From the NCBI GenBank assembly GCA_003151625.1, contig PLYC01000010.1, forward strand, positions 133,515 to 197,514: a stretch of 64,000 nucleotides of DNA, in the 5' to 3' direction. This DNA comes from Candidatus Doudnabacteria bacterium (GTDB taxonomy: Bacteria > Patescibacteriota > Doudnabacteria > UBA920). The notes under the pieces are model-generated. The model saw only the letters and a list, made by a program, of their open reading frames with translations, did not search any database and was not told the DNA's origin. The position numbers were made by a program, and so were the translations under genes. This document shows, piece after piece, positions 19,246 to 56,681 of the stretch (position 1 is the stretch's first letter; each line of letters starts with the position of its first letter).

Positions 19246-19315
19246 TGGGGCGTCGCCAAGCGGCCCGTCTCGGCCGAGGTTATCCGAATTAGCCGAGCCG
19301 AGGTGGATAAGGCAG
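19246..19315 (+). pseudogene. 5' half of tRNA-Gln with a 44-nt hairpin inserted in the D-loop
   Basis: TGGGGCGTCGCCAAGCGG-[insert 19264-19307]-TAAGGCAG, then runs into the GIY-YIG start. Confidence 0.8.
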
Positions 19316-19327
19316 CACAAAAAAACT

Positions 19328-19582
19328 ATGCCAGGCTATATTTATGTCCTTTTTAGTAACAAGGACAGTAAAACTTATTTGGGCTCAACCGATAATCTTC
19401 AAAGAAGACTGGACGAACATTTTGCGGGAAAAGTAAAAGCAACAAAAAATAGAAGGCCTTTAAAATTAATTTATACTGAAGAATATATGCTTTTGGGAGA
19501 AGCCAGAAAGAGAGAAATGTACTTAAAAACCCACGCCGGAAGAAAAAGATTAAAGGAATTGCTAAAGAATTTTACAAAATAA
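19328..19582 (+). CDS. Stand-alone GIY-YIG nuclease
   Basis: YIYVLFS..YLGSTDNLQRRLDEH..TKNRRP.KLIYTE..ARKRE..LK. Confidence 0.92.
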   Translation: MPGYIYVLFSNKDSKTYLGSTDNLQRRLDEHFAGKVKATKNRRPLKLIYTEEYMLLGEARKREMYLKTHAGRKRLKELLKNFTK

Positions 19583-19598
19583 ATTTTTTACTAACGAT

Positions 19599-19673
19599 TG
19601 GGGTGTCGCCAAGCGGTAAGGCAGGGGCCTTTGAAGCCCCCATTCGTAGGTCCGAATCCTACCACCCCAGCCA
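19599..19673 (+). tRNA. tRNA-Gln(UUG), intact
   Basis: TGGGGTG/CACCCCA acceptor, GGGGC-CTTTGAA-GCCCC anticodon arm, encoded CCA; T-loop TCCGAAT. Confidence 0.93.
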
Positions 19674-19694
19674 TTAGTAAATAATTTATAAAGC

Positions 19695-19845
19695 ATTGGC
19701 GTCGCTCGTCTCGGCTTCGCCGAGCCGAAGTCGGACCAAGCAGCCCGTCTCGGCCGAGGCTATCCGAATTAGCCGAGCCGAGGTCGGATAAGGCAGGGGC
19801 CTTTGAAGCCCCCATTCGTAGGTTCGAATCCTACCGCCCCAGCCA
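19695..19845 (+). pseudogene. tRNA-Gln(UUG) copy with two hairpin insertions in the D-arm and an intact 3' half
   Basis: Inserts at about 19705-19735 and 19744-19788; TAAGGCAGGGGCCTTTGAAGCCCC...GGTTCGAATCCTACCGCCCCAGCCA. Confidence 0.8.
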
Positions 19846-19909
19846 ACAACTCTCTCATAATACCGGAGACCGAAGAGTATCAGCGTTTCAAGAGACAGTC
19901 AATGATTTT

Positions 19910-20584
19910 ATGCCGTCAGATAAATTCGAAAAAACAATAGCTGCAATAGTCTGCTGCTACAACGAGGCTCGAACGATTGAACGAGTAATATCCGATTTAC
20001 TCAAAATCCCATTTTTATCGCAAATTATTGTTGTGGATGATGGTTCCTCTGACAATAGCCGGCAAATATTACAAAAATATAAAGAAGAAGTTACTATTCT
20101 TTTCAATGCATCTAATAAAGGAAAAGGTTGTAGTGTTGCCCGTGCATTGGAGATTGCAAATTGCGATATCATCCTACTATTAGACGCTGACATCATTAAC
20201 TATACTGCTGCTGATTTAAAGTTGCTTGTAGAGCCAGTTATGCAGTGGAAGTTCGACTTTAGTGTAAAAGTTCCTGATAGTTATTTTTTTCTTTATGTAA
20301 ACGTTAGCGGAATCCGATGTTATTGGCGTAAAGATTTATTGCCTCTTGCTACCGCTTTTACGCGAACCAGCAAATACGGTATAGAGTTGTTTTTAAACAA
20401 AGCAATGCGGCAAAAAAGCGGGGTATTTATAAAACTAAGCGATTACCGGCACACTGATAAATTCCAGAAGTATCCTTTTTTCAGAGCTGTTTGGGAATAT
20501 GGCAAAGAGGCCGGGAGCCTATTGTATCAGATAATTCTTACTTCCGACCGAGGGGCGTTATACAGTATTAAAAAGAATCCCTAA
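19910..20584 (+). CDS. Glycosyltransferase family 2
   Basis: CCYNEA, VVDDGSSD, NKGKG, LLDAD. Confidence 0.9.
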   Translation: MPSDKFEKTIAAIVCCYNEARTIERVISDLLKIPFLSQIIVVDDGSSDNSRQILQKYKEEVTILFNASNKGKGCSVARALEIANCDIILLLDADIINYTAADLKLLVEPVMQWKFDFSVKVPDSYFFLYVNVSGIRCYWRKDLLPLATAFTRTSKYGIELFLNKAMRQKSGVFIKLSDYRHTDKFQKYPFFRAVWEYGKEAGSLLYQIILTSDRGALYSIKKNP

Positions 20585-20649
20585 AAACCCTTTGAAGGCC
20601 GCTAAAATGGTGGTTCTAAACCGGGTTACACAGCCAGTAATTTTATAAA

Positions 20650-21141
20650 ATGGAAGCTACTCAAAATTCATTACCCGAAATTGCCATTAGGGAATATAGA
20701 CTCGATGACTCTTTACAAATAAAAGAGTGTTTGCTTGTATTGCAGGATTTTGTTCACCTTTTGGAGCCAAAAATTGTTGCCACCGGCTCAAAGGTTTTTG
20801 ACAGTTATTTTGAATATTTGATAAATGAAATAAATAAAAAGGATGGTAAAATTTTTGTTGTTGAATCAAGGAATGCAATTGTTGGTTTTGTTGGATTATT
20901 TGTTACACAGGAAGAATGGGAATCGGAAAAATCTTTGTACATTTCCGATCTTGTCGTGTTAGAAAAATACCGTGGTCTAGGCTTAGGAACTAAACTTTTG
21001 GAATATGTTGAAGATTATGCAAAACAACAGGGTGCAAAATTCATAAAAATCGGGGCGCTCGAAAAAAATCACGGCGCACTAGATTTGTATCGCAAAATGG
21101 GTTTTGCTGATTATTTGGTTGTCTTGCTAAAAACGCTATAA
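20650..21141 (+). CDS. GNAT N-acetyltransferase
   Basis: LVVLEKYRGLGLGTKLL, N.GAL.LYRKMGF. Confidence 0.92.
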   Translation: MEATQNSLPEIAIREYRLDDSLQIKECLLVLQDFVHLLEPKIVATGSKVFDSYFEYLINEINKKDGKIFVVESRNAIVGFVGLFVTQEEWESEKSLYISDLVVLEKYRGLGLGTKLLEYVEDYAKQQGAKFIKIGALEKNHGALDLYRKMGFADYLVVLLKTL

Positions 21142-21282
21142 TTTTATAACAAAATTGTTCTAATTTGGTCAAATAAAGCCAGCCAACGTTTTTCACCAAT
21201 GTTTATTGGTGATTTTTTGTAAGGCCATATAGTACTTTGGAACCGTGGTATAATAAACTTGTTGACTAATTAAAATGTAATT

Positions 21283-21708
21283 ATGCAAACAAACAATTTT
21301 TGGATTTTGGTTTTAATAATTTTATTTATCGTTGCCTATTATTACGGAGGCGCATATTTGATTTATTCTCGGATGAAAGCAAGGAATGACAAAATGGAGA
21401 AACTGGCCTTGGAGTATGGCTTAAAGTTTGAAAATAAAATGCCTCCTTATAATCGGTCGCACTACAGAAACTTTAAGCAGTTAGTCGCCAACTGGGTATC
21501 TGGTAATATAGGCCAGCACTCTATCGAAATCAGCGATGTATATCACGACGAGCTACACCAGGACTTGAAAGATTACTTAAGATTTACACGCACTATCTTT
21601 AAAATCGACGACAAAGAAAAAATGGAAATTAAAGACCAATTGACTCTCCGCTCCTCAAGATTGACCACAATCAATGAACTTCGTTCAGATTTAAAAAAGT
21701 TGTTTTAG
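21283..21708 (+). CDS. Hypothetical protein with N-terminal TM
   Basis: ORF preceded by TGGTATAAT extended -10. Confidence 0.65.
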   Translation: MQTNNFWILVLIILFIVAYYYGGAYLIYSRMKARNDKMEKLALEYGLKFENKMPPYNRSHYRNFKQLVANWVSGNIGQHSIEISDVYHDELHQDLKDYLRFTRTIFKIDDKEKMEIKDQLTLRSSRLTTINELRSDLKKLF

Positions 21709-21918
21709 GAAGCAAGCAGTCGCATCTTTGCTCAATTTTTGTTCGAACATCGTCCCACAGCCCCAGCCAACAATTTTGGTTCCTACAGACCTACCAACCC
21801 TGAACCAAAGTTACAAGTCTTAAGAAAATAAGAGCATGGATTTTGCATCCATGCTCTTATTTTTTTCTACATTCAGTAAAAATATGCTAAAATAAGGTCA
21901 TAATTTCAATAGAATTCT

Positions 21919-22914
21919 ATGAACAAAATATATCCGGAAAAATTAAAAGTTGGAGATGAAGTTAGAATTATAGCGCCTTCAAGATCGCTCGGCATTATCT
22001 CAAATAATTTAAGAGAGATAGCCAACCGCCGATTTAGGGATTTAGGGCTTAAAGTCAGTTTTGGCAAGCATGTTGAAGAAAAAGACGAGCTTGATTCTTC
22101 CGGTATAGAATCTCGCATTGAGGACTTGCATGAAGCGTTTGCCGACAAAAACATCAAAGCAATTTTTACCGTCATTGGCGGGTATAATTCCAACCAGTTG
22201 TTGAAGCATATTGATTGGCAATTGATAAAAAATAACCCAAAAATACTTTGTGGCTATTCTGATATTACAATCTTAAATAATGCTATTTACGCCAAGACCG
22301 GATTGATAAGCTACTACGGCCCGCATTATTCCACTTTCGGGCAGGAAAAGCACTTTGACTATACTTTGGATTACTGTAAAAAATGTTTGTTTTCTGACGA
22401 ACCGTTTGAAATTAAACCCAGCGAAAATTGGAGTGATGATTTTTGGTTTAAAGATCAAAACAACCGCACCTTCATTCCTAACGAAGGGTGGTTGGCAGTA
22501 AACGAAGGCGAAGCTGAGGGAACTATCCTCGGAGGTAATCTTTGCACTTTTAATTTGATACAAGGCACGGAATTTTTTCCAGATTTGAACGACAGTATTT
22601 TATGTTTGGAAGACGATGATTTACCAAAAGAAAATTCCGCTGTGGAATTTGACCGCAATCTGCAATCCTTAATTCAGCAACCAAATTTTGAAAAAGTCCA
22701 AGGTTTGGTCATTGGCAGATTCCAAAAAGGCAGCCAAATTACGAACGAAAAGATAAAACAAATTATAAAATCAAAAAAAGAGCTGGCTAATATGCCCATA
22801 ATTGCCAATGTCGATTTTGGCCACACCGATCCCAAAATAACCCTTCCAATTGGCGGAGAAATTCAGATTAAAGCGCATTTTCAGAATTCCCAAATAAACA
22901 TAACTAAACATTAA
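21919..22914 (+). CDS. S66 peptidase (MccF/LD-carboxypeptidase family)
   Basis: IIAPS, IGGYNS, GYSDIT (Ser), GGNL, LEDD, DFGHTDP (His); Trp-containing loop WSDDFW. Confidence 0.92.
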   Translation: MNKIYPEKLKVGDEVRIIAPSRSLGIISNNLREIANRRFRDLGLKVSFGKHVEEKDELDSSGIESRIEDLHEAFADKNIKAIFTVIGGYNSNQLLKHIDWQLIKNNPKILCGYSDITILNNAIYAKTGLISYYGPHYSTFGQEKHFDYTLDYCKKCLFSDEPFEIKPSENWSDDFWFKDQNNRTFIPNEGWLAVNEGEAEGTILGGNLCTFNLIQGTEFFPDLNDSILCLEDDDLPKENSAVEFDRNLQSLIQQPNFEKVQGLVIGRFQKGSQITNEKIKQIIKSKKELANMPIIANVDFGHTDPKITLPIGGEIQIKAHFQNSQINITKH

Positions 22915-23055
22915 AGTTACCATTCAAGCAAAAAAATAAGGGCATGGACAAAAAATCCAAGCTCTTTTTTATCTAATGTTATTCCAAGTCTTTAAAATAT
23001 AGGACAATAGGGGTCGACGAGAGCCGGCCCCTATTTGGTTTGAGCGCCATTGCGC

Positions 23056-23508
23056 TCAGTTGATGGTGACGGGACGCAGCTCGAGGGGTTCCTGTTCGTA
23101 GGGAACGAAGAACGCTTTGGATCCCGCCACAGCTACGCCCTTTCCGGAAGTCCCGTCCGCCAAGGCGAGACCGATGTTGCAGCGGCAGCCTAATCCTGGA
23201 GTGGTGATGAGTTCGTGATACTGCTGAAAGGCCTCGCTCCACCTCTCCAGGACGATATGGTGACCGTGGTCGTCAGTGTAGACATTGACACCCTCTTCGT
23301 GCAGGAGGCGGAGAACGGCGTTCTCCACAACCTTGCCCGAGAAGGGCTTGTCCGCATTGATTACCAGGTGAAACAGGCGGCCGGTCATCCGGGCGCCGTT
23401 CATGATGATGGTTTCTGGGTTGCCGACAACGAACTTCGTATCCGGTTGGCCGGATCGTAAATGCATTGCCAGCGTTTCCGCAATCTGCCCTTGACGTTCT
23501 GTGAACAT
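23056..23508 (-). CDS. Hypothetical protein
   Basis: AAGGAG RBS before ATG; GC-rich block. Confidence 0.55.
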   Translation of the reverse strand: MFTERQGQIAETLAMHLRSGQPDTKFVVGNPETIIMNGARMTGRLFHLVINADKPFSGKVVENAVLRLLHEEGVNVYTDDHGHHIVLERWSEAFQQYHELITTPGLGCRCNIGLALADGTSGKGVAVAGSKAFFVPYEQEPLELRPVTIN

Positions 23509-23544
23509 ACACGCTCCTTGGTTGGTTGTCGGTAACTTTCGGTA

Positions 23545-23754
23545 TTAGGCCGAGTGAACGCAGGTGCCGTCGGAATTGTAGGCATAAACTTCAATGCCGA
23601 CGCCGCGGTTGGTGTGAGCGATGTCATCGATCTCCCGTTGGCTTAACGGTGCGTTGTAGTCGCCAATAAAGAAATCTTCGCCATGCTCGTGCCCGATGAA
23701 ACGGATCTTACCATCCGGAGCCTTGGGCTCCGTATCTGACTTTCGGAATAGCAT
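23545..23754 (-). CDS. Small hypothetical protein
   Basis: GGAGG RBS before ATG. Confidence 0.55.
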   Translation of the reverse strand: MLFRKSDTEPKAPDGKIRFIGHEHGEDFFIGDYNAPLSQREIDDIAHTNRGVGIEVYAYNSDGTCVHSA

Positions 23755-23959
23755 GATTCCTCCCCCTTTGCAAATTTATATCGCACGTTTCAAAACATAT
23801 TTATAAACTCTGTGAACCGTAAAATAATGAAAATACTACTTACTGAGAAAATGATCTTGGTTTGAAATAATTATATACCTATTCAATAAATAAAAACAAC
23901 CTGAAAAAATCAACCCGGCGCGTCCTCCTTTGCGCCGGGCGTGGTTGAAGAACAACAAC

Positions 23960-25285
23960 TTAAACCTCCTGGAGCACCTGCCCCAGGGCATTCCGGACAT
24001 CGGCCTCGAAAGCGGAGCGGCATTCGAGGGCGTGGGTGAGGGTGGCTTCTTTGCCGCTGACGCAGACCACCAACTGGCATCCGCGGAGTTTGGCCTGTTC
24101 TACCGCTCCCGCGGAGGAAAGCGGGTCGTAGCTCAGGTCAACGTTGATGCCAGCATTGCGAAGCTGCTGGGCGAATCGGAAAGCCATGGCTGTACTGTCG
24201 TTATTGCCGCAGTACGCTACCAGGACTTTATCCGGAAGGACAAGCTCGGATTTGAGCATGTCCAATTCCTTCATGACTGCAAGGATGCGGTCGAGGCCGA
24301 AGGCCATGCCGACCGCCGGTTCAGGCGGAGCGCCGAAAGCGCCCACCAGATTGTCGAATCGGCCACCGCCGAGTACCGCGCCGATTGGCACGCCGGGAAT
24401 CACTCCTTCCAGAATGAAACCGGTGTAATAGTCGGCGCCGCGAGCCAACGTAAGGTCGATTCTGACGTGAGATAGCACTTCGTCGGGCAGATAAGAGAAA
24501 ATCTCCCGGAGCTCAGCGATGCCGGTTAATCCGGCCGGCTGGTCGTGAAGATTGTCTTGAAGGTGTTGAAGCATGTCTTCGAGCGAGCCGGAAATAGCGA
24601 TGACGCCCATAATGCTTTCTATCAGGGCGCTGCCAACCCGGCGGCGTTTCAGGTCTTCGCGAATCCCTTCCAGGCCTGCCTTGGTCACCTTGTCGGCGTA
24701 ATCCATAGCGCGTTGCACCTTGAGGATGCCGTCTTTGCCGGTGATACCGGCGCGGGCAGCAATGGCCTGGATGATCATGCGATGATTGACGCGGATGACG
24801 AACTGCCGGAAACCGAGGTCGCAAAGGCCGCGGTATGCTACGGAGATAATATCAGCGTCAGCCAGAAGGCTGGAAGCGCCAATGATGTCCCCATCGCATT
24901 GCATAAACTCGCGGAAGTGCCCCTTGTCCGGTTTGTCATCGCGAAACACATAGCCGAACTGATACCGCTTGTAGGGGCGGGGCAGGTCGGGGTGCATGCT
25001 GGCTACGCGAGCCAGCGGTACCGTTAGGTCGTAGCGGAGAACGAGACGGTGTTTCTTGTTGTCTCCCAGGCGGAAGATGAGCTTCTCGCCCTCGCCGTGG
25101 TGGCCGTCAAATACGACCTCGTTCTCGATGGTGGGGGTATCGTGGGGAGTGAAACCGCTCTTCTCGTAGACAGAACGGAGAATACGGATAACGTAATCAC
25201 GCACCCGCATTCCAAGCCCCAGCTTGTCAGTAGTGCCCGGAGGGACGGCGTTCTTAAGCCGAGACCGGGTCTGTGGATGACCCAT
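23960..25285 (-). CDS. Divergent histidyl-tRNA synthetase paralog
   Basis: LRYDLTVPLAR, FRDDKPDKGHFREFMQCDGD, LARGADYYTG, GGGRFD, AFGLDRI; eroded C-terminal domain. Confidence 0.85.
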   Translation of the reverse strand: MGHPQTRSRLKNAVPPGTTDKLGLGMRVRDYVIRILRSVYEKSGFTPHDTPTIENEVVFDGHHGEGEKLIFRLGDNKKHRLVLRYDLTVPLARVASMHPDLPRPYKRYQFGYVFRDDKPDKGHFREFMQCDGDIIGASSLLADADIISVAYRGLCDLGFRQFVIRVNHRMIIQAIAARAGITGKDGILKVQRAMDYADKVTKAGLEGIREDLKRRRVGSALIESIMGVIAISGSLEDMLQHLQDNLHDQPAGLTGIAELREIFSYLPDEVLSHVRIDLTLARGADYYTGFILEGVIPGVPIGAVLGGGRFDNLVGAFGAPPEPAVGMAFGLDRILAVMKELDMLKSELVLPDKVLVAYCGNNDSTAMAFRFAQQLRNAGINVDLSYDPLSSAGAVEQAKLRGCQLVVCVSGKEATLTHALECRSAFEADVRNALGQVLQEV

Positions 25286-26621
25286 TGTTTGCGCTCTCCT
25301 TGGCGCGGATGAGGCTAATAGCCTCTTTGGTGCTCACGTTGCTGGTTTGTCCTGTGGACATATCCTTGAGGGAAACATAGCCGCCGGCGACTTCGTCGTC
25401 GCCGATCACGATGATGAAAGGAATTCCCAGCCGGCTGGCGTAGGTTACCTTTTTTTTCAGCTTGGCATCATCGAAGTATACGGCCGTAGGTATGCCGCCT
25501 TCGCGCAACTCGGTAGCTGCCTGCAAAGGAACGCGGAGATCGGAAGTTTGCGGAATGACCAGCACTATAGCGGGCGTTGCGGATTTGGGAGTAATGATGC
25601 CCGCTTCGCGAAGCTGGTAAAACAGCCTGGTCAGGCCAATGGAAATTCCGACGCCGGGCAACTGTTTGTTGGTATAGTACCCAGCCAGGTCGTCGTAACG
25701 TCCGCCCGAACAGACACTGCCGATGCCGGGGTAGTCATTCAGCACCGTTTCGTACACGGTGCCCGTGTAATAGTCGAGGCCGCGGGCGATTGTCAGGTCA
25801 ATAGCGTAATTCTGCCCGGGAACCCCAAGCGCCGAGACGTAGGAAATTACCTTCTCCAATTCGTCGACGCCGGTATGGAAAGTGCCGTTGCTGATCTGCA
25901 TCTGCTTGAGCTGGGAGAGGATGGCGGCCGTGTCGCCTGTCAATCCGATGAACGCAAGAACTTCGCGCGCCGCATTGGGTGGCGCTCCTAGACCGGCCAA
26001 CTCCTGCTGAACTGCTTCCTGCCCGGCTTTCTCCAGCCTGTCGACCGAACGGAGGATGTCCGCGGCCTGGCTGGCAAGTCCGAGCGATTCGAAGAAGCCG
26101 TTCAGAATCTTGCGATTGTTGATTTTGATGGTGAAGCGGGAAAAGCCGAGCGCCGTAAAGGTTGCGTAGATGACGCTGGGAATTTCCGCGTCGTTTAGCA
26201 AACTCAAAGCGCCGTCGCCGATGATGTCGATGTCGCACTGGTAGAATTCCCGGAAACGGCCTCTCTGCGGCCGCTCTCCGCGGAACACTTTTCCGATGTG
26301 GTAGCGCCGGAAAGGAAACGCGAGGTCCGGATAGTGCTGCGCTACATAGCGGGCCAACGGAACCGTGAGATCAAACCTCAAGGCCAAATCGCTGTCGCCC
26401 TTGGTGAAGCGGTAAATCTGCTTTTCGGTCTCACCGCCCGCCTTGGCCAAAAGCACTTCGGCCAATTCGATGACGGGGGTATCTAGCGGAATGAACCCGA
26501 ACCGTTCATAGCTTTTCTGGATTACTCCCAACATGCCGTTGAACAGCATTTGGTCTGCCGGGAGCAGTTCCATAAAGCCGGAAAGGATCCGGGGGGTGAC
26601 TTTACTTGGATTGTTGTTCAT
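25254..26621 (-). CDS. hisS: Histidyl-tRNA synthetase (second copy, canonical motifs)
   Basis: LRFDLTVPLARY, FRGERPQRGRFREFYQCDID, RGLDYYTG, GGRYD, anticodon-binding domain. Confidence 0.93.
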   Translation of the reverse strand: MNNNPSKVTPRILSGFMELLPADQMLFNGMLGVIQKSYERFGFIPLDTPVIELAEVLLAKAGGETEKQIYRFTKGDSDLALRFDLTVPLARYVAQHYPDLAFPFRRYHIGKVFRGERPQRGRFREFYQCDIDIIGDGALSLLNDAEIPSVIYATFTALGFSRFTIKINNRKILNGFFESLGLASQAADILRSVDRLEKAGQEAVQQELAGLGAPPNAAREVLAFIGLTGDTAAILSQLKQMQISNGTFHTGVDELEKVISYVSALGVPGQNYAIDLTIARGLDYYTGTVYETVLNDYPGIGSVCSGGRYDDLAGYYTNKQLPGVGISIGLTRLFYQLREAGIITPKSATPAIVLVIPQTSDLRVPLQAATELREGGIPTAVYFDDAKLKKKVTYASRLGIPFIIVIGDDEVAGGYVSLKDMSTGQTSNVSTKEAISLIRAKESANNGSSTDPVSA

Positions 26622-26874
26622 AATATTTGATCAATCCTCCTGCATGGTACAAACTACGGAATGACTGGCTCCATAATTCTGCCAATCGATGGTAAAGAAC
26701 AAACAAGCTCATCCTTATTGCACGGATAAACTTATCGTATTACTATAAATCAATTTAGCTTATATTGTCAAGGAGATTGGGTTTGGCCAGAGAAGCCCCT
26801 GACAAAATTTTTTAACTTGATTTTATTGGATAAATAATATATATAAAAGTCGAGTGAACTGTAAAAAAAGATAT

Positions 26875-26903
26875 CCGGGCAGCTCCTAAGAGGAACTGCC
26901 CGG
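26875..26903 (-). terminator. Hairpin downstream of the ammonia-lyase gene
   Basis: ccgggcagctcc-taaga-ggaactgcccgg followed by a T-run on the minus strand. Confidence 0.6.
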
Positions 26904-26933
26904 AAGATAAAACCTTTGCCAAACGGCTCGGGT

Positions 26934-41376: not shown

Positions 41377-41394
41377 TCATTAAGACTAATATGT

Positions 41395-42888: not shown

Positions 42889-42896
42889 TTCCATTT

Positions 42897-45810: not shown

Positions 45811-45870
45811 TTTTTAGCGTGAAGAAGTAATAAAATAGGATAGAGCAGCGACATTATTAATTCAAAAATT

Positions 45871-47490: not shown

Positions 47491-47605
47491 GCGATTTATA
47501 GTCCTATTTTGCCTTAATCAAACAATGAGCCCCGTGAATCTCCCCGAAGATACCGTGAGTCCGGTATGGGGGCTCAAATAAGAGCAATTTTGTTATCCTT
47601 TAATT

Positions 47606-48739: not shown

Positions 48740-48768
48740 AATTATTAATAATTAATTTAGATAAAAAT

Positions 48769-49050: not shown

Positions 49051-49070
49051 GGTTTTGAATTAAATCATTT

Positions 49071-49750
49071 ATGCTTCCTCGAGCTATGGTCAAAGAGTTG
49101 GCCGATTTGCCAATAGAAAATTTGGACGAATTTAATTCGTCGGTGCAGTATTTTAAAAAAACAAATAAATTGTTTTTTAATTACTGGTTAATTTATTTCA
49201 ATTTATGCCCATTCCTTAATAAGGAAACCATCAACAAAATTGTTGATTTTGGAACGGGAATCGGCGACTTGCCAGTTTATTTAGCGGAAAAGTTGGAGCA
49301 AAAGAAAATAAATTATTTTATAACTGGCATAGATACTAATGTCCAAGTCATTTCATTGGCAAAAAATGAAGTGAAAAATTACCGAAATATAAAAGTTGTT
49401 TGTTGTAATCTAAATGATTTGGTTGAACGGTTTGATATCGCATTGCCTCGCAGGTTTTTCATCATTTATCGCCAGAAGAAGCCGTTGATTTTTTAAAAAC
49501 AGCTTATACAAAAGTTAACAATGTTTTAATTATTTCGGATTTAATTAGAAGCAAGTTAGTTTATTGGCTGGTCAAAGGGTTTGTTTTCTTGACAACCACA
49601 AATAAAATCAACAGATATGACGGTGCTATTTCGGTTTTACGGTGCTACAATGATGGTGAAATTAAGCAGTTACTACACCAAGCAGACATAAAAAATTTTA
49701 AAATCCGTAATATATTTTTTAGAAAATTCATCATCATCCCAAAACAATAG
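49071..49750 (+). pseudogene. SAM-dependent methyltransferase with a 1-nt frameshift near 49445
   Basis: VDFGTGIGD in frame 1; SQVFHHL..ISDLIRS..DGAISVLR continues in another frame to TAG at 49750. Confidence 0.75.
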
Positions 49751-50425
49751 TGGACGGCAGGGTGGGCACCCGTGCCACACAGCCACCTACTTTTGTTATC
49801 GTACAGACCGAGAGGCGTTGTAGATAAGACATAAATTCGAGTTCTAATCCGAGAGGGATCATAAGGATCCTGCTAGGGTTCGAACCAAAATCAGACGATT
49901 AAAAAGTTGATTCCCGTCCCCGGTAGTTAATAAAATATTGTTTTTTATAGATAAAAAGTTGCAGACGTTTCGTCTGTAATTTTTTTTGGCTATGTTCTTT
50001 AAATGTCCTGCCAATTCGTAACAGGTGGAAAACTTATCTGGCTTTGGTTAAAGAAATTTTTGAATGCTTTAGCGATGGCTACTGTTCTATGCGCTTTGTA
50101 CTGAAAAACTTGCATGAAGAAAAGAACAATAAAAAACCCCAGGGTTGCGCCCCGAATTTTTGTTTTGCATAAATGCCTAATCTTTTGAAGAATTACCCCA
50201 AACCCTTACATCCTGCATATGGAAAAAATGCGTATTAAAACATTACAGCCAGAGCTAAGCCTTAAGAAATGTTTAACGCCGTAGTTAAGCTTTTAAATAG
50301 TTATTTAATTAAAATATCGAACATAAAAGAGCTAAAAACTTCATAATTAAGTGCATAACCCCCCCAGCTATATACTATATTCACAATAAGGAACATACTT
50401 AGGGCTATAGTAATAAAATAAAAAT

Positions 50426-50734
50426 ATGCTCACTGATAAACAAATAACAAACATCCGCGAAGCGTTTAACGGTACCGACCAAAGAGTAATTCTTAAGGCT
50501 CTCGGCGACACCAACCGTTATCGCATTTTTGAAATGCTGGGCAAGCTGCCAAGATTGGCCGTCAGCGATATTGCCAAAGTCCTAAAAATCTCCGTACTTT
50601 TGGCATCGCAGCATCTTAAAATTTTAGAGCAAGGCAAAATGCTAGAAAAAGAAGAACAAGGCCAAAAAATTTATTATAAACTCAAGGCCGATAGGATTGT
50701 CCAATCTTTTATTCCAGTACTCAAAATTAAATAA
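50426..50734 (+). CDS. ArsR/SmtB family regulator
   Basis: KALGDTNRYRIF, SQHLKIL, G..IYY.L. Confidence 0.9.
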   Translation: MLTDKQITNIREAFNGTDQRVILKALGDTNRYRIFEMLGKLPRLAVSDIAKVLKISVLLASQHLKILEQGKMLEKEEQGQKIYYKLKADRIVQSFIPVLKIK

Positions 50735-50742
50735 TTCTTTTT

Positions 50743-51060
50743 ATGCTTTCAAGCCAAGAAATAAAAAAAGTGCAGAGCTATCTCGAAGATGGGGATGTGG
50801 ATACGGCATTGACCAAGATTTTTAAAAGCCTGAGCGACATAAATCGCTGCAAAATTTTTAGAATGCTCGCGGTCCAGCCCCAGCTCTCTGTTAGCAGTGT
50901 GGCCAAGGTACTTAATATTTCCACGCCTTTGGCATCGCAGCATCTTAAAATTCTTATGCAAAACGGACTATTGACCAAAGAAAAGGTGGGGATAAGGGTC
51001 TACTATAAATTAAAAGACAAAAATCCAATTATAGCCACCATTCTTAAAGTAATTAAATAA
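50743..51060 (+). CDS. ArsR/SmtB family regulator (tandem paralog)
   Basis: FKSLSDINRCKIF, SQHLKIL, G.RVYY.L. Confidence 0.9.
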   Translation: MLSSQEIKKVQSYLEDGDVDTALTKIFKSLSDINRCKIFRMLAVQPQLSVSSVAKVLNISTPLASQHLKILMQNGLLTKEKVGIRVYYKLKDKNPIIATILKVIK

Positions 51061-51087
51061 TTTTTTTATAACTGAAACTCCACCGGT

Positions 51088-51483
51088 ATGAAAACACAAA
51101 AAATAATATTGGTGGTTGAAGATGAAAAAAGTCTGCGTGAAGCCATTGTGGATATTCTTCGCCGCAAAAACTACAACCCTCTTGAAGCAAAAAACGGCAG
51201 AGAAGGCGTAGAGATAGCGCTCTCTAAACATCCCGACCTTATTTTGCTTGACCTTATTATGCCGGAGATGGACGGCATGACTGCTCTTAAAAAGATTCGG
51301 CAAGACGTTTGGGGGGCAAAAGTTCCCATTATTATTCTGACGAATTTAAGCATGAACAACAAACAGCTGGCGGACGATATGGCAAAGCATAAGCCAATAT
51401 TTTATTTAATAAAATCAGACTGGAAGATCCATGATGTCGTAGATAAGGTTGCAAAGATATTAGAAGAAACAAATTCTTTATGA
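51088..51483 (+). CDS. Single-domain response regulator
   Basis: VVEDE, LLDLIMPEMDG, ILTN, IKSD. Confidence 0.92.
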   Translation: MKTQKIILVVEDEKSLREAIVDILRRKNYNPLEAKNGREGVEIALSKHPDLILLDLIMPEMDGMTALKKIRQDVWGAKVPIIILTNLSMNNKQLADDMAKHKPIFYLIKSDWKIHDVVDKVAKILEETNSL

Positions 51484-53118
51484 ATAAAAAAAATGTTAAA
51501 TCTTCATCCTATAACATAACCTTTAAGCTAAAAGCTTTGGCTAAGGAAAAGGAAGAAGTCAGACACAGGCTGGTAATAACCGCAAAAAACCTCAGCCTCA
51601 AAGCTAAACAACTGGTTAAGATAGCCAAGGAAAAAGAAGACGTTAGGCTCAGGCTGGCGGTAACGGCCAAAAACCTTAGCCTTAAAGCCAAACAACTCGT
51701 GGTAACGGCCAAGGAAAAGGAAGAAGTCAGACGCAGGTTGGTAGTAACGGCAAAGAACCTCAGCCTTTAAAGCTAAGCAGCTACTTGTGATAGCCAAGGA
51801 AAAAGAAGACGTTAGGCTCAAGCTGGCGGTAACGGCAAATGAATTGAAAAAGTCGCGCGAAACGCTCGAGAAAAAAGTTCTTGAACGGACCAAAAACCTT
51901 GAGCGGATTACAGCCAGAAACGAAGCCATGCTTGCGAGTGTTGGCGATGGTTTGGTGGTGGTGGATAAAGAAGGTAAAATAACTTATATTAACAAATCTT
52001 TTGAGGAGACGCTTGGTTTGAAAGTGCAGGAAGTAATCGGCAGGAGCATGGTTAAAGTGGTGCCCAGGGAAGACCAGAGCGGGACAGAGGTGCAATTTAA
52101 AGAAAGAATTTTAACTCAAGTCTTGCTGGGAAAAAAGTTTGTAGCCGATTTAACCAACCCTTTTTATTATATCCGTAAAGATAAAAGCAGATTCCCTGTC
52201 AGTAGTATTATAACGCCTGTCGTTCTGGACGGAAAAATTATTGGGGCGGTAGAAACGTTTAGAGATATTACCAAAGAAAAAGATATTGACAAAGCCAAAT
52301 CGGAATTCGTCTCGCTGGCTTCGCACCAGCTCCGTACCCCGCTTTCTACCATTAATTGGTATACGGAGATGCTTCTGGCGGAAGACGTCGGCAAAATCAT
52401 GCCTGAACAGAAAAAATATCTGGACGAGGTCTACCGCGGTACTCAAAGAATGACTGAGCTGGTCAACGCTCTTTTGAATATTTCCAGCATTGAATTAGGG
52501 ACATTTGTTGTTGACCCGGAACCAACAGACATAATCAAACTCGCGCAAGGCGAAATTGAGGAACAAAAACTGCAAATTGACGCCAAGCGTATAAAATTTT
52601 CTTCCTCATTCAAAAAGGATATTCCCGTGATTCTCGCCGATCCGAAACTCCTGCATATGGTCATGCAAAATCTTTTGACTAACGTCGTGAAATATACTCC
52701 CGAAGGGGGCAAGGTTACGCTTGAGATTGTCTTATCAGATGACCAAGGACGAACGACTCTCCCGAGTAAAATTAAAAGGTCACATGTCCTGATTAAAGTT
52801 TCCGATACGGGTTATGGCATTCCAAAGAACCAACAGGACAAAATTTTTACCAAGCTGTTCCGTGCCGATAACGTGCGGGACAAAGATACCGAAGGAACAG
52901 GCCTCGGGCTTTACATTGTAAAATCAATTATTGAACATTCCGGCGGCAAGATTTGGTTTGAGTCTCCGGGAGATGCACCTGTGGGAGGGAAGGATTTAGC
53001 CTTGGAGGGCAACCCCGGCACCACTTTTTATGCAACGCTTCCTTTGAATTCGGTGAAAAAGTCCGTCGAACGTGGATCTGTCTCTGATAAAAAAGAAGCC
53101 GCCAAGACAAATGATTAA
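51480..53118 (+). pseudogene. PAS sensor histidine kinase with N-terminal 28-aa tandem repeats, split by a +1 frameshift at about 51767
   Basis: 84-nt repeats continue across the stop; PAS domain, SHQLRTPL H-box, N/G1/F/G2 boxes; 51787-53118 may be expressed alone. Confidence 0.75.
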
Positions 53119-53151
53119 TAAACGCTCCAAAGGTGTAGTATACTAAAACAT

Positions 53152-53553
53152 ATGATAAACGAATCTACAAAAGATAAAATGCAAATATTAGTCATTGAAG
53201 ACGAGCTTCCTCTAATGGAAGCAATAAAGGCAAAACTTGAAAAAAATGGCTTTGAGGTTATTACTGCACGTAGTATCACATTCAGCTCTCTTCTGGATTT
53301 GGGGCAGGTTGACGCAATCTGGCTGGATCACTATCTCTTGGGAAAAGAAAATGGCCTTGATTTTGTAAAAAAATTAAAAGCTAAAGGCAGCCGATTGAAT
53401 AAGACTCCTATCTTTGTTGTCTCCAATACGGCATCTCCTGCTGAAATAAAATCATACAAACGGTTGGGAATAACTAAATACTACGTTAAAGCCGAACATC
53501 GAATTGCCGCGATTGTCGACGAAATAAAATTGTTTCTGGATCGTAGTAAATAA
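53152..53553 (+). CDS. Single-domain response regulator
   Basis: VIEDE, WLDHYL, VVSN, VKAE. Confidence 0.88.
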   Translation: MINESTKDKMQILVIEDELPLMEAIKAKLEKNGFEVITARSITFSSLLDLGQVDAIWLDHYLLGKENGLDFVKKLKAKGSRLNKTPIFVVSNTASPAEIKSYKRLGITKYYVKAEHRIAAIVDEIKLFLDRSK

Positions 53554-53831
53554 ATAACCGGACACGACCATTTATTTTAACATCTAGATCATTAACCAAA
53601 AATTATGCAAAAACCTCCACTCAAACTTTATGTAATTGCGGTAATCATCCTTTGGACGCTTAACTAAATCAATAAATAAAAAAACTGCGGACATTTGCTC
53701 ATAGTTTTTTTATTTTTATTTTTGGCTATCATATTTTTGCAGGCTTATCACTTTGTGGGGCTATTTACCCATTTAGGATTAGAACCACAATAAAAGAAGC
53801 CGCTCCGCATAATTAAGATAAAGTTGTGGTG

Positions 53832-53900
53832 GGGTCAAGTCTGAATATTCAACAAATTATTTCAACATAAACCAAAATGTCAAAAATTCAGACTTGACCC
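53832..53900. repeat. Miniature element with 15-bp terminal inverted repeats
   Basis: gggtcaagtctgaat ... attcagacttgaccc. Confidence 0.7.
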
Positions 53901-54001
53901 TCTGTTTTGTTTTTTGTTCGAACATCGTCCCACAAGTCCAGCCAGAAAATACTCAAGCAAAAGCTTGAGTATTTTGTTTTAAAGTATGTTAAAATTTATG
54001 T

Positions 54002-54679
54002 ATGATTGAATTAAACAAAAAAGCCTTTGGGGGATTATTTTTCTTGATTGTTGCCTTGGCGCTGCTCATATTCCTTCCGGCGTGGACGGTTTATTACTGG
54101 CAGGCTTGGATTTTTTTGGCTGTGTTTTCGGTAACGGTGCTGGCAATTACTTTTTATTTAATGAAAAAAGACCCCAAACTGTTGGAGCGCAGGGTAAATG
54201 CGGGGGCGGCGGCAGAGAAGGAAAAGAGCCAAAAAGTAATTCAGTTTGTGGCTCAATTAGCTTTTATAACCGTTATTGTTTTCCCGCCCGTAGATCACCG
54301 CTTTAACTGGTCGCTTGTGTCCCCTTTTGTATCTGTTATTGGAGACGTTATGGTCTTTTTGGGACTCCTGTTTGTATTTTTTGTTTTTAAGGAAAATTCC
54401 TTTACCTCGGCTATTATTGAAGTCGCCAAAGAACAAAAAATTATCACCACCGGCCCATACGCGTTGGTGCGGCACCCCATGTATTTGGGGGCTTTAGTAA
54501 TGCTGTTTGGAGTACCTTTGGCGCTTGGTTCATACTGGGGATTACTGGCTGTCATCCCTATCGATCTAGTGATTGTCTGGAGGCTGCTTGATGAGGAAAA
54601 ATTTTTAGCAAAGAACCTGCCGGGATATTTGGAGTATAAAAATAAAGTGAGATGCCGCTTAATACCTTTCATCTGGTAA
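54002..54679 (+). CDS. Isoprenylcysteine carboxyl methyltransferase/PEMT family membrane protein
   Basis: ENSFTS, TTGPYALVRHPMY, EEKFL..LPGY.EY. Confidence 0.9.
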   Translation: MIELNKKAFGGLFFLIVALALLIFLPAWTVYYWQAWIFLAVFSVTVLAITFYLMKKDPKLLERRVNAGAAAEKEKSQKVIQFVAQLAFITVIVFPPVDHRFNWSLVSPFVSVIGDVMVFLGLLFVFFVFKENSFTSAIIEVAKEQKIITTGPYALVRHPMYLGALVMLFGVPLALGSYWGLLAVIPIDLVIVWRLLDEEKFLAKNLPGYLEYKNKVRCRLIPFIW

Positions 54680-54682
54680 CTT

Positions 54683-54922
54683 TTACTCTACGCCGGTATT
54701 AGCATCTTTCTCGGTGGCGCTGTATATTTCTTCCGCCAGTTGTATGGGATCTGTGGTCCGGTCGTAAGGAAGGTTATTGTCATCGGCTAATCCGCGCAAG
54801 CGCTCCAAGGATTCTGAAGTACCGGCCTGCGCAAGCTCTTGTAACTCTTTGTAATTTATCTGCCCATGGTCACTAAGCCAGTCATTAGCATTACTAATTT
54901 GTTTTTGGTCTGAATTGGGCAT
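54683..54922 (-). CDS. Small acidic hypothetical protein
   Basis: ORF co-oriented with the cupin cluster. Confidence 0.55.
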   Translation of the reverse strand: MPNSDQKQISNANDWLSDHGQINYKELQELAQAGTSESLERLRGLADDNNLPYDRTTDPIQLAEEIYSATEKDANTGVE

Positions 54923-54944
54923 AATATTTTTTTAAATAAACTAC

Positions 54945-55157
54945 CTAATCCACCTTTGGCTTACGCATTCTTTGGGTGGCTTTTGTCCTGTATTTTCCTT
55001 GTTTCAAATTTTTCAACTGGAGCTGGGCGACATTAATAATATCTTCAAGCCGGTTGCGGTTATCTTCCGGATTTTCTATTATTGTCCTGGCGCTTCTGAC
55101 AATATTTTCCAGCCCCTTAGCCAAATCATTTACCGCTTTGTCGTCCATTGTATACAT
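54945..55157 (-). CDS. Small hypothetical protein
   Basis: ORF co-oriented with the cupin cluster. Confidence 0.55.
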   Translation of the reverse strand: MYTMDDKAVNDLAKGLENIVRSARTIIENPEDNRNRLEDIINVAQLQLKNLKQGKYRTKATQRMRKPKVD

Positions 55158-55172
55158 AAAATTTTTTATTAT

Positions 55173-55577
55173 TTATTCAGTTGTAACACCGTCAAACTCT
55201 TCGTCATTTTCCTTTGCTTCAGCTTGTTGTTTGGTCGTACGTACAATGCTGTCTTTATGATGGGGCGGAGAATAAAGGGTGTACATTTTAAGATCTTCTT
55301 TTTTTGAAGTGTTAATAATATTGTGTTGCGATCCAGCAGGCACAATAACAGCTGACCCGTCAGCAATCGGGTATTCGTTGCCGTCAATAACGCATTTGCC
55401 CTGACCCTGTTCAAAACGGAAAAACTGGTCGTTGTCTTCATGGACCTCCATGCCGATTTCCTCTTGCGGCTTCAAACACATCAATACCAGCTGGCTGCGT
55501 TTAGCTGTATAAAGCACTTTGCGGAAATTATTGTTTCCCAAAGTATTTTTTTCAATGTCCGTTTTAAATCCCTTCAT
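55173..55577 (-). CDS. Cupin domain protein (copy 2)
   Basis: Close paralog of 47086-47490 including the EEFDGVTTE end. Confidence 0.9.
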   Translation of the reverse strand: MKGFKTDIEKNTLGNNNFRKVLYTAKRSQLVLMCLKPQEEIGMEVHEDNDQFFRFEQGQGKCVIDGNEYPIADGSAVIVPAGSQHNIINTSKKEDLKMYTLYSPPHHKDSIVRTTKQQAEAKENDEEFDGVTTE

Positions 55578-56037
55578 AAAAAATTTAATTTATTATACTT
55601 CCACGCAATAAGTTTGTTCACAAAATTATTATTTTATATTAATATAGTTTTAGTTTTCGGCCTTTGCTTTTACCGGTATAAGTTTTCTGTAGCCGCTCCA
55701 TCGTGTTGGAAATGATTTTAAATCCAATAGCCATTTTTTAATTTTCGTAAAGTTTTTTTCCTTGGCTCCTTAAGCATAGAATTTATTATAACTTCTGTAT
55801 ACGGCAAAAATCTGTATTACAACATTAAAGCCTCAGCTAAGCCTTAAGAAATATTTAATAGCCTAGTTAAATAACTTATTAATTGTTTAACTGAAGATAT
55901 TACCCATAAAATAGGTAGAAGGTTCACAACAAGTGGATAATTAACCTTGTAGCTATATCTATCCTCCATAATAGAGAGTACGCTTAAGGCTCTGGATATA
56001 AAGCAACAAAGGTCGAAAATAATAAGGAGAAAAATAT

Positions 56038-56244
56038 ATGGATTCCAAAAAATCAATACTACCCGCCAAAAAAAGGCAACACAAAATATCTTTTCATGAA
56101 GGCGGATTGCACGCCTCTACCGGTACTCCTTTGTCAAAAAAGATTTCACCCGCAAAGCACGCCTCGGCAAAATCCGGAAAACTAGGTTCAAAGGCCCAAA
56201 AACAGGAAATGTTTTATGAAAATGTTTTAAAACGCCGAAAATAA
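56038..56244 (+). CDS. Small Lys-rich basic protein
   Basis: AAGGAG RBS; GGLHASTGTP..KKI..K..AKSGKLG. Confidence 0.65.
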   Translation: MDSKKSILPAKKRQHKISFHEGGLHASTGTPLSKKISPAKHASAKSGKLGSKAQKQEMFYENVLKRRK

Positions 56245-56250
56245 AGGTTT

Positions 56251-56320
56251 CCCCGCCGCAAGCAGCGGAGTATTACCGCAAGGACATTTCTGTAAATTCG
56301 CGGCAAGCCGCGGGGTATTA
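56251..56320. repeat. IS200/IS605-like end hairpin pair without transposase; another such hairpin at about 45019-45047
   Basis: ccccgccgcaagcagcggagtatt and gcggcaagccgcggggtatt. Confidence 0.5.
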
Positions 56321-56681
56321 AACCTTTCTTAGCTCCTCGGCTCGCAAAGTAATGCCTTAAGGCATTACTTTGTCTCGCCTACGTCGCGAATAACAAAGAA
56401 TTAAAGCACACACAATCGGCATAAAACTATGGGCATTTGAGCAATCCGACGGCTTTATAAAAGCTTTTGCCTTAGGTTTTACGCTAGTTAAACTTTTCTG
56501 CCGATATCTCCGTACCAGATTTAACCACCGGTTGCTGGAATTACAATAAATTTTGGGTACGCACATTCCAATTTTATCAAATAGAGCCAGCCAAACAAAA
56601 ATCGCAAGTGGCGGTTTTTTTAGTTTTACAAAACTATGCCCGCTCTATTTATGATATAATGTAGTAAATTAATCCAACAAA

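Follow-up and report, generated by a model that had tools for sequence, protein, structure and literature searches.

How does a bacterium with a genome of 1.5 Mb come to carry some 37 kb of accessory genes behind a single transfer RNA (tRNA) gene? Genomes of the candidate phyla radiation (CPR; Patescibacteria) are tiny, and their gain of accessory genes is poorly understood. In a Candidatus Doudnabacteria genome (G000; 34 contigs, 43% GC), a 64-kb window (G000:C16:133515-197514; coordinates given without a contig are those of the whole window, and C13, C5 and the like are other contigs of the same genome) holds an intact tRNA-Gln(TTG) gene, called by ARAGORN with Rfam in agreement, followed by an island of gene blocks that reaches to a DoxX gene. 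A sequence-only reading had described the region under study, 19246-56593, as an integron-like, tRNA-templated accretion of cassettes of one to five genes, punctuated by ten eroded copies of the tRNA-Gln 3′ end, with the means of capture unexplained. Here we find that the joints are non-random, that their commonest motif recurs behind other tRNA genes and in other CPR genomes, that large serine recombinases (LSRs) are associated with tRNA-Gln in relatives, and that synteny breaks at a CAGCCA core. The island, with its ten real same-strand joints, was probably built by serial site-specific insertion through LSRs specific for tRNA-Gln.

Ten same-strand joints of two classes

All ten sites (J1-J10; Table 1) lie on the + strand between genes, and each is backed by more than a bare CAGCCA; on this point the sequence-only reading was right. 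Within 19246-56593, the + strand holds 26 copies of CAGCCA and the - strand 13, where 13.45 are expected per strand (a 1.9-fold enrichment on the + strand), while CAGCCAAC occurs seven times on the + strand, against 0.79 expected (Poisson estimate ~2e-5), and is absent from the - strand; both words thus stand above background on the + strand only. Four of the 18 genome copies of CAGCCAACA fall in the region, and the stretch that the 21741 and 53916 sites had been said to share, gttcgaacatcgtcccaca, is indeed identical over 24 nt. When all 1082 genomic CAGCCA sites were ranked by aligning their upstream 60 nt to tRNA-Gln, the top places went to tRNA-Gln(TTG), its second copy and tRNA-Gln(CTG), followed by C5:148632, 44723 and 20631, tied at 28; 21764 came eighth.

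The joints fall into two classes. Class B (J1, J2 and J7) keeps the spacing of the tRNA (GTTCnAAn, 10 nt, CAGCCA) and consists of decayed tRNA-Gln 3′ parts, of which J7 begins at a CTG-type anticodon loop. Class P (J3, J4, J6, J9 and J10) is a 29-nt motif in which GTTCSAAC is followed by 15 nt and CAGCCA, such that the 23-nt arm preceding CAGCCA is 5 nt longer than that of the tRNA. Copies with 0-3 mismatches stand at C13:53967, C13:54682, 53916, C5:148222 and 21741; a second variant (GTTCCAACTTGGTCAAACAAGG...) occurs at C13:57178 and C13:58017, with a weaker form at 21157 and 56565. The description of the sites as eroded tRNA-Gln 3′ ends therefore holds for the three class B joints and fails for the five P-type sites, where GTTCSAAC and CAGCCA are separated by 5 nt more than in the tRNA: because tRNA ends that decay independently cannot arrive at one identical sequence, longer by 5 nt, at separate loci, the P-type sites are a conserved element and not the outcome of erosion.

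To avoid circularity, the P-type matrix was trained on 15 sites outside the window, seven from this genome and eight from relatives. Its scores for the five P-type joints (Table 1) compare with maxima of 20.7, 16.0, 16.0, 14.9 and 14.0 in five shuffled genomes, which leaves the site at 56565 borderline by score. A scan for the 29-nt motif with up to 8 mismatches gave 12 matches in the genome and none in three shuffled genomes. The sequence to the right of the core is conserved too. A right-arm profile built from six sequences of relatives only gave five genome matches at E<0.01, four of them in the window and all four on the + strand, at 21764, 44723, 39681 and 49780; because they are matched by this profile, the sites at 39681 and 49780, noted earlier as bare CAGCCA, are real joints. 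The right arm of J1 was unmatched by the same profile. BLAST of the ten sites with their flanks revealed repeat families in common with the C13 stretch behind tRNA-Gln(CTG) (copies at 52476, 53967-54051, 54680-54754 and 57177) and with C5:148185-148650. Two simpler searches were of little use: short-word BLAST of tRNA-Gln against the genome returned duplicates, J7 and one C5 site only, being too insensitive for decayed sites, and a 22-nt Hamming scan with all 44 tRNA and transfer-messenger RNA (tmRNA) tails gave mostly tRNA-to-tRNA cross-matches. J2 and J4 are not assembly artefacts, because contigs of public runs (X7 for J2; X1 and X3 for J4) bridge them without differences; runs X1, X3, X6 and X7 were compared as assembled contigs throughout.

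Right arms are of two kinds. The terminator type consists of ACGTTTTTCACCAATGTTTATTGGTGA, a T-run and then a TGGTATAAT box, and is both predicted and folded as a terminator; it stands after tRNA-Gln(CTG), C13:53967, C13:54682, C5:148632, 21185 and 39493. The second family reads ...TTTTTATCG...GACCGAG or ...GGTTCCT...GACCTAC and lies directly behind intact tRNA-Gln genes in the relatives G010, G017 and G018. By eye, J3 and J5 are each followed by the TGGTATAAT box, which a promoter scan did not flag. Every P-type site examined has a hairpin and U-run within ~10 nt downstream, although the hairpin sequences differ, and what the joints share is the non-palindromic 29-nt arm with the tRNA tail. 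No mirror copy of GTTCGAAC at the distance of a symmetric site was seen by eye in the right arms. Some 90 nt into its right arm, J6 has an inverted T-loop-like GGATTCGAACC (39775-39787), which may be the relic of a recombinase end that once overlapped a tRNA.

Breakpoints in related genomes

Relatives were sampled at tRNA-Gln, at genus and family level (20 loci in 15 genomes). The clearest comparison concerns the block that follows J4 (block D; Table 1). Over this 15.4-kb block (21734-37162) nucleotide identity to G002 is 96%, while the core genes on either side (Dus side, DoxX, PBP, RsmH, MraZ and SpoU) have only 67-80%. The left arm of J4 differs from the P-arm variant of G002 at 10 of 29 nt, and identity begins at CCAGCCA. 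In G002, tRNA-Gln is followed by an LSR and three small genes, a P site and block D, without the family-2 glycosyltransferase (GT2), GNAT and orphan-protein units found here; in G008, block D starts right after the CAGCCA of the tRNA-Gln(CTG) gene and matches at 86-93% through the his operon into a 246-aa gene; in this genome the three small units intervene between tRNA-Gln and block D. Serial insertion between the tRNA and a resident unit predicts these three states. A fourth arrangement comes from a 982-nt X6 contig, which runs through the GT2 unit (19900-20637; 21 differences in 738 nt) and continues at 21771, passing from core to core and skipping the GNAT and orphan units. Synteny thus breaks at the joints wherever comparison is possible, at J4 in G002 and G008 and from J2 to J4 in the X6 contig, as the sequence-only reading would have it.

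Block D was found in four of 80 other family genomes searched: G002, G008, G001 (a 70-71% version) and G044 (in parts). It carries a complete his operon with a HisA-HisF fusion, alongside three HisRS-like genes. A complete his operon is an unusual biosynthetic cargo for a CPR genome and, on these comparisons, is an accessory part of the island that was exchanged recently between species. No second recently shared block was found in the 19.5 kb of 37163-56650, where matches, with the top three candidates per genome scored, are at 66-91% and scattered over other loci of the relatives.

The distal end of the island is conserved. J10 had been taken to mark the return to housekeeping genes, and DoxX, hyp125 and PBP do follow it here, as hyp125 and PBP follow in G015, G012, G018 and G022. 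Measured from tRNA-Gln to hyp125/PBP, the island is 6.35 kb long in G018, ~11 kb in G015 and ~14 kb in G012, compared with 37 kb here; in G018 it ends, next to hyp125/PBP and in the same position as J10, in a P-type site (score 24.4) with a terminator. Two arrays lie in altered orientation: at G002:C11:65117-66973 the whole tRNA and island segment is inverted relative to its flanks, with DoxX and the dcw cluster upstream of the tRNA, and in G010 (L098, G010:C50) the array is inverted beside a DEAD helicase. From these, the joint sites seem to mediate inversions as well.

Several other jumps in the run contigs were not taken as deletions. Those from 19835 to 21180, with CGGG between, represent the C13 tRNA-Gln(CTG) locus, and those from 19623 to 19813 or 19819 other tRNAs, cross-mapped in each case; those from 21217, 21218 or 21255 to 21734 or 21739 have unknown letters between.

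Recombinases and the distribution of the arm

The genome was searched for serine and tyrosine recombinases, and seven LSRs and four tyrosine recombinase genes were found. The frames of four LSRs overlap, on the opposite strand and by 41-78 nt, the 3′ ends of tRNA-Glu(TTC), tRNA-Lys(CTT), tmRNA and tRNA-Asn (Table 1); their last residues are a reverse-strand reading of the T-arm and acceptor end (for example ...GIEP... and ...WLGSWDSNP...), and excision would alter the C terminus of such proteins. The genome-wide LSR search found none at either tRNA-Gln gene of this genome. Among the relatives, by contrast, an opposite-strand LSR lies within 2.5 kb downstream of tRNA-Gln at 8 of the 20 loci, from 6 of the 15 genomes, and at 6 of those 8 its frame overlaps tRNA-Gln or a fragment of it. 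One such type ends ...WLG, in which WL is the reverse reading of CAGCCA, and the three tRNA-Gln LSRs that were scanned have Resolvase, Recombinase and Zn_ribbon_recom domains. The elements that carry them end distally in a P-type site (L055:5812, L061:11150, L051:10077 and 10796); that of G017 also holds an AlwI-type restriction-modification set. With LSRs at these loci and seven more in this genome, the missing enzyme is probably an LSR, and the view of capture as unexplained is not supported.

Tyrosine recombinases show no such association. The 58 window proteins include no PF00589 match; the four genes (five matches, two in one gene) are all on other contigs; and a scan with this genome's proteins found none at the 20 tRNA-Gln loci of the relatives. 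The small GIY-YIG gene at the head of the array stands outside the cassette mechanism. In one X6 contig 19236 is joined to 19598, without the GIY-YIG gene and the tRNA 5′ fragment, which together are a separate 361-nt insertion/deletion variant missing in one related population. In this genome, six of the eight small GIY-YIG genes have a tRNA gene or a tRNA fragment no more than ~200 nt away (19246-19598, C3:34373, C21:22494, C5:203889, C33:10723 and C27:6307; the places compared include a tRNA-Lys-like fragment), and the unit looks like a separate tRNA-associated selfish element.

A sister array lies behind tRNA-Gln(CTG) at C13:52408-58767 (L001), where six P-type sites between 53967 and 58739 separate six units of one or two genes each; RecO follows the end of the array. 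Five of the six units have no Pfam family and one encodes a PMT-type glycosyltransferase. Beside the joint at C13:58017 is a 31-codon relic of a tRNA-Gln LSR C terminus (C13:58037-58129; E 2e-9 to 2e-8); an LSR must therefore once have sat in the array.

The arm also stands behind other tRNAs, with other tRNA tails. An arm-only matrix of 22 nt, without the tail, gave 27 matches at a score of at least 13, against 4-13 in shuffled genomes, and the 7 nt after each arm were compared with the tail of the nearest upstream tRNA on the same strand. Agreement was 7/7 at four window tRNA-Gln(TTG) sites, a tRNA-Ala(TGC) site and a tRNA-Tyr site, 6/7 at five of the six C13 tRNA-Gln(CTG) sites and a tRNA-Arg(TCT) site, and 5/7 at two tRNA-Leu(CAG) sites; a weaker P variant occurs three times behind tRNA-Gly(CCC). 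Further afield, a degenerate 22-letter arm pattern matched 17 stretches in a species-representative genome collection, 13 of them in CPR-titled records (Doudnabacteria, Saccharibacteria, Paceibacteria, Kaiserbacteria, Azambacteria and Magasanikiibacteriota), and the joint motif is present in public records titled Candidatus Doudnabacteria. In six of these 13 the arm is followed by CCAGCCA or TCAGCCA (L080, L087, L088, L090, L091 and L094), with a clear hairpin and T-run after it in three (L080, L087 and L094). The combination of P arm, CCAGCCA and terminator is found in Doudnabacteria- and Saccharibacteria-titled records, and other tails in other CPR groups. Apart from these sites, conserved hairpin-forming stretches of ~40 nt ending GCAGCCA or ACAGCCA lie ~30 nt downstream of tRNA-Ser(GGA), tRNA-Leu(TAG) and tRNA-Leu(CAA), at C22:26742(-), C18:16671(-) and C7:64413(-); they may be another kind of site or a processing element.

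By Pfam, the gene content of 19246-56593 is a mosaic of accessory functions (Table 1). The his region comprises a high-GC block with two HisRS paralogues and an aromatic ammonia-lyase, the complete his operon and TrpR, and the remaining cargo includes GT2, GNAT, orphan-protein, LD-carboxypeptidase, IS3, glycogen, redox and lipid, two-component, methyltransferase and cupin genes. GC-rich hairpin repeats occur in the D arms of the tRNA-Gln copies (19256-19315, 19706-19735 and 19743-19788), and such insertions have disabled the duplicate at J1. A dispersed repeat of ~155 nt at 56239-56393 recurs at G000 C16:105018-105175 (94% between copies) and, at 77-91%, in several relatives.

Table 1 Features along the island and tRNA-overlapping LSR frames elsewhere in G000
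Feature	Position	Strand	Evidence
tRNA-Gln copy: 5′ fragment with GC-rich hairpin insert in D-loop, ending at anticodon stem	19246..19320	+	18 nt at 94% to tRNA 5′ end; 61 nt at 95% to 19736-19796
Small GIY-YIG nuclease gene, 84 aa	19328..19582	+	Pfam PF01541, E 8.8e-17
Intact tRNA-Gln(TTG), anchor; B arm GTTCGAAT/GTCCGAAT, 10 nt, CA/GCCA	19599..19673	+	ARAGORN; Rfam 60.4 bits
J1: second tRNA-Gln copy, two hairpin insertions in D arm, 3′ end intact	19697..19845	+	57 nt, 96%; Rfam tRNA 35.5 bits at 19776-19834
Unit with family-2 glycosyltransferase (19910-20584)	19846..20587	+	Pfam
J2: decayed tRNA-Gln 3′ half, anticodon loop onward; tRNA spacing GTTCTAAA, 10 nt, CAGCCA	20588..20636	+	Score 28, tied 4th-6th of 1082 CAGCCA sites; X7 contig bridges 20494-20681
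Unit with GNAT acetyltransferase (20650-21141)	20637..21156	+	Pfam
J3: P-type motif 21157-21185, then terminator hairpin and TGnTATAAT-like box, as behind tRNA-Gln(CTG) on C13	21157..21260	+	Matrix 31.1; 41-52 nt at 98-100% to C13:52476 and C13:54703
J3 terminator	21193-21212	+	Terminator prediction and fold; -10-like box by eye only
Unit with 141-aa protein, no Pfam match	21283..21708	+	Pfam search
J4: P-type motif; exact left breakpoint of block common to G002 and G008	21741..21769	+	Matrix 35.5; right arm E 9.5e-10; X1, X3 contigs bridge
Block D: right arm and terminator, LD-carboxypeptidase, high-GC segment, his operon with HisRS/HisZ-like gene, TrpR	21770..37162	.	Pfam; GC 0.50-0.59 at 23-28 kb
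IS3-family insertion sequence, 26-nt inverted ends, just left of J5	37986..39357	+	Inverted repeats; Pfam rve/HTH
J5: 134-nt stretch ending CAGCCA (39488-39493), then terminator-type right arm; left arm of neither motif class	39360..39560	+	90% to G010:C50:8131-8264; fold
J5 right arm, 64 nt	after 39493	+	87-92% to 21180 and to C13 sequence behind tRNA-Gln(CTG) and its array
Mini unit, 193 nt between J5 and J6: terminator-type arm, TGGTATAAT box, 27-codon frame with stop inside P arm	39494-39686	+	Sequence
J6: P-type motif closing the 193-nt mini unit	39658..39686	+	Matrix 27.8; right arm (39681) E 9.7e-5
Glycogen unit: GlgA-like, GH57, phosphorylase	39687..44682	+	Pfam
J7: decayed 3′ half of tRNA-Gln(CTG)-like gene, anticodon loop onward, tRNA spacing	44683..44728	+	22/25 to tRNA end; score 28, tied 4th-6th of 1082; right arm E 5.5e-5
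Unit: isochorismatase, zinc alcohol dehydrogenase, cupin, cyclopropane-fatty-acid synthase, rubrerythrin-like protein, methyltransferase	44729..49779	+	Pfam
J8: CAGCCA and conserved right arm; left arm unrecognisable	49780..49837	+	nhmmer E 1.3e-3; 49 nt at 86% to 39681-39729
Unit: two ArsR-type regulators, response regulator, PAS histidine kinase, response regulator	49838..53915	+	Pfam
J9: P-type motif, 1 mismatch to C13 copies, then strong terminator hairpin	53916..53944	+	Matrix 42.0; fold -16.9 kcal/mol, z -6.2
Unit: phospholipid methyltransferase-like protein, cupin (- strand), small frames	53945..56564	.	Pfam
J10: terminal P-type site and terminator; distal island end	56565..56593	+	Matrix 21.1, shuffle maximum 20.7; fold
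DoxX, first conserved-flank gene (then hyp125, PBP, dcw cluster)	56682..57230	+	Pfam; 76% nt identity to G002
tRNA/tmRNA-overlapping LSR frames in G000	C5:40207-41742, C1:85924-87495, C9:22047-23645, C21:22769-24268	opposite to tRNA-Glu, tRNA-Lys, tmRNA, tRNA-Asn	

Proposed serial insertion, its rivals and its precedents

We propose that elements carrying P′...P, with or without an LSR, would insert at the end of tRNA-Gln, where the GCCA of the P′ side would restore the tRNA. Each newcomer would enter between the tRNA and the previous unit, push the resident outward and leave a P-core-P′ junction, so that every joint would be an attR or such a junction and the far end (J10) would be P-core followed by native flank. 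The 29-nt motif would then combine the half-site of the element (P) with the tRNA tail, crossover falling close to the CA of CA/GCCA, and the right arms, whether of the terminator or the GACCGAG/GACCTAC type, would be the left end of the next unit, the terminator presumably keeping the tRNA terminated. Recombinase genes would have been lost later, C13 retaining a relic and the window none, and units that lack one may be decayed elements or served by a recombinase in trans. Class B joints are probably native 3′ halves displaced by tyrosine-type integration, or stem from the duplication to which the broken second tRNA copy is also due. The spacing of the two sites is suggestive in this regard: GTTCSAAC lies 15 nt from CA in the P motif, and GTTCGAAT 10 nt from it in the tRNA. 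In integrases of the LI/A118 type, the zinc-ribbon motif occupies positions 16-24 of attP half-sites and 11-19 of attB, a 5-bp shift, as set out in Rutherford et al. 2013 (PMC3783163). The 15- versus 10-nt offset would match this shift exactly if the crossover dinucleotide is the CA before GCCA.

Several observations weigh against this account. The half-site interpretation draws on the left arm only, as no inverted GTTCGAAC was seen at the expected distance in the right arms; J5 and J8 have no recognisable left arm; and four of the 17 arm-pattern matches are in records without a CPR title and have no CCA tail, although these may be chance. Canonical LSRs do not target attL or attR, and stacking would thus call for relaxed, Ccr-like behaviour. 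Pfam and relic searches found no LSR gene or relic in the island, with only the tRNA-overlapping part matched, and the resident LSRs are all at most 54% identical to the tRNA-Gln LSRs of relatives; nothing therefore shows that the array is active here. The X6 joint is a single contig with 42 nt on its short side, from run data in contig form. The right end of the 96% block, at 37163, has no site, only an inverted TGGCTGG at irregular spacing, and this break looks specific to G002, as G008 continues into the 246-aa gene.

Might the array instead be a live, integron-like platform, whose one-gene units act as autonomous cassettes, form P-core-P′ circles and are shuffled at present by an LSR from another part of the genome, rather than being dead relics of larger elements? 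Such a platform would explain why the same ~95-nt left end (core, terminator and TGGTATAAT) precedes unrelated cargo at 21186, C5:148632 and C13:52482/53996/54711, and would accord with the 0-1 mismatches of the 29-nt motif across loci and species, the X6 variant of the GT2 unit and the seven LSR genes. We nevertheless consider it unlikely: no circular junction was seen, although contigs could not have shown one, none of the resident LSRs is close to the tRNA-Gln type, at least one small C13 unit is visibly a decayed LSR element, and the large units of the window bear no sign of being cassettes. Sites of class-I tyrosine integrases start at the anticodon loop, as J2 and J7 do, and these two joints and C5:148650 keep the tRNA spacing. 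One could accordingly see in all joints the attR remnants of phage-type islands with crossover inside the tRNA, the 29-nt motif being a diverged tRNA end and the four tyrosine recombinase genes a possible source. This seems very unlikely, given both the absence, described above, of such genes from the window and from the relatives' tRNA-Gln loci and a motif that exceeds the tRNA end by 5 nt, is identical wherever it arose independently and is joined to unrelated tRNA tails, which decay cannot give.

The hairpin and U-run near each P-type site examined would equally suit a functional RNA or transcription module, in which motif and hairpin are a selected tRNA-like 3′ processing or terminator signal and no recombination takes place. 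To this we attach scarcely any weight: the hairpins differ in sequence, the sites are restricted to arrays behind the tRNA whose tail is copied, synteny breaks at the core, a T-stem around GTTCGAAC cannot form as judged by eye, and Rfam finds no family at the sites. Least probable of all is that the GIY-YIG nuclease at the array head cuts the tRNA gene and that capture follows by homing-like repair. Its position between a tRNA-Gln 5′ fragment and the intact tRNA, and the proximity of most of its small paralogues to tRNAs, speak for it; but the unit is a 361-nt variant of its own upstream of the tRNA, all joints are downstream, and these have the anatomy of recombinase sites and LSR partners in relatives.

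For serial insertion by tRNA-Gln-specific LSRs, the closest precedent appears to be the ssrA islands of Dehalococcoides. That report (McMurdie et al. 2011, PMC3146451) describes islands that follow one another in tandem behind a small RNA gene and are delimited by direct repeats of the gene's 3′ end. Immediately before each repeat stands a conserved motif that shows no alignment to the RNA gene, and beside attL a CcrB-like serine recombinase of ~540 aa is encoded on the reverse strand; islands without the integration module also occur and are taken there as cis-mobilisable or accreted. Our island is alike in its intact anchor gene, its same-strand 3′-end repeats at unit boundaries, the non-aligning element motif beside the repeat and the breakpoint-matched variation in content. 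It differs in that the recombinase beside attL is found at 8 of 20 loci in relatives but neither in this island nor at this genome's tRNA-Gln genes, in its anchor (both isoacceptors of tRNA-Gln, plus other tRNAs in the genome) and CPR host, in the absence of a second small, DsiA-like recombinase or six-gene integration module beside the LSRs inspected, in its many single-gene units of 0.2-1.5 kb and in an LSR frame that runs into the tRNA. In the staphylococcal cassette chromosome (SCC), too, LSRs stack elements at one chromosomal site, and ccr-less pseudo-elements persist between integration-site repeats. Its composite SCC/SCCmec islands at rlmH (orfX), with CcrAB or CcrC, are covered in the same report (PMC3146451). 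The SCC target is a protein gene, whereas here it is a tRNA, and the recombinases are presumably related only distantly.

Prochlorococcus tycheposons are also islands beside tRNA genes, in which repeated integration pushes older elements outward and leaves partial tRNAs and degraded elements amid adaptive cargo; according to their description, tyrosine recombinases serve 910 of 937 tycheposons and cryptic elements, and replication genes are present in many (10.1101/2020.12.28.424599). Here the partner is an LSR and the commonest joint an element-borne half-site, not a partial tRNA. With integrons and clusters of attC sites lacking an integrase (CALINs), the array shares a row of mostly co-oriented small units, a recurring site between them and, in this genome, the absence of a recombinase from the array. 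The label integron-like nonetheless has loose support at best: no tyrosine recombinase was found in the window, there is no IntI, attI or shared folded palindrome of attC type (judged from sequence and folds, with no attC model), the site ends in a tRNA tail and some units have their own -10-like box and terminator. Nor are the units cassettes of one to five genes, the largest being 17.7 kb. What endures of the accretion proposal is an island of units joined at same-strand sites that end in a tRNA tail; templating by the tRNA is not supported, as the commonest joint motif is element-borne, kept across CPR lineages and no copy of the tRNA. As in A118/LI att sites, the outer motif common to both partners is 5 bp more distant from the crossover on the element than on the host. 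Here only the left arms show the shift, known from sequence, and stacking would need hybrid sites, which canonical integrases avoid.

Gene islands built serially by recombinases are thus already known; particular to this one are the CPR host, one arm combined with many tRNA tails, an LSR frame running into the tRNA and many one-gene units with their own terminator and -10-like box. Literature searches, made outside supplements and subscription journals, listed nothing about serine recombinases at the tRNA genes of CPR, Patescibacteria or Saccharibacteria; a further search gave papers on prophages and genomic islands only. Beyond correcting the view of these repeats as decayed tRNA ends, the 5-bp offset between arm and tRNA offers a testable model of how a serine recombinase may read a tRNA T-loop, and the arm-plus-tail signature can be used to map islands across CPR genomes. 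The locus represents a concrete route of gene gain, in which a conserved recombinase docking arm and a tRNA tail mark added units, and along which a complete his operon, extra HisRS genes and an ammonia-lyase passed between species in recent times. More tentatively, and with rather more doubt than confidence, we suggest that CPR bacteria may possess a general gene-capture system, in which an LSR family reads the T-loop of the clade's target tRNA and cassettes with their own promoter and terminator, a universal 23-nt arm and a tRNA-specific tail are stacked, swapped and moved between species, as would be whole pathways such as histidine synthesis. If true, such a system would serve lineages with tiny genomes as a functional equivalent of the integron.

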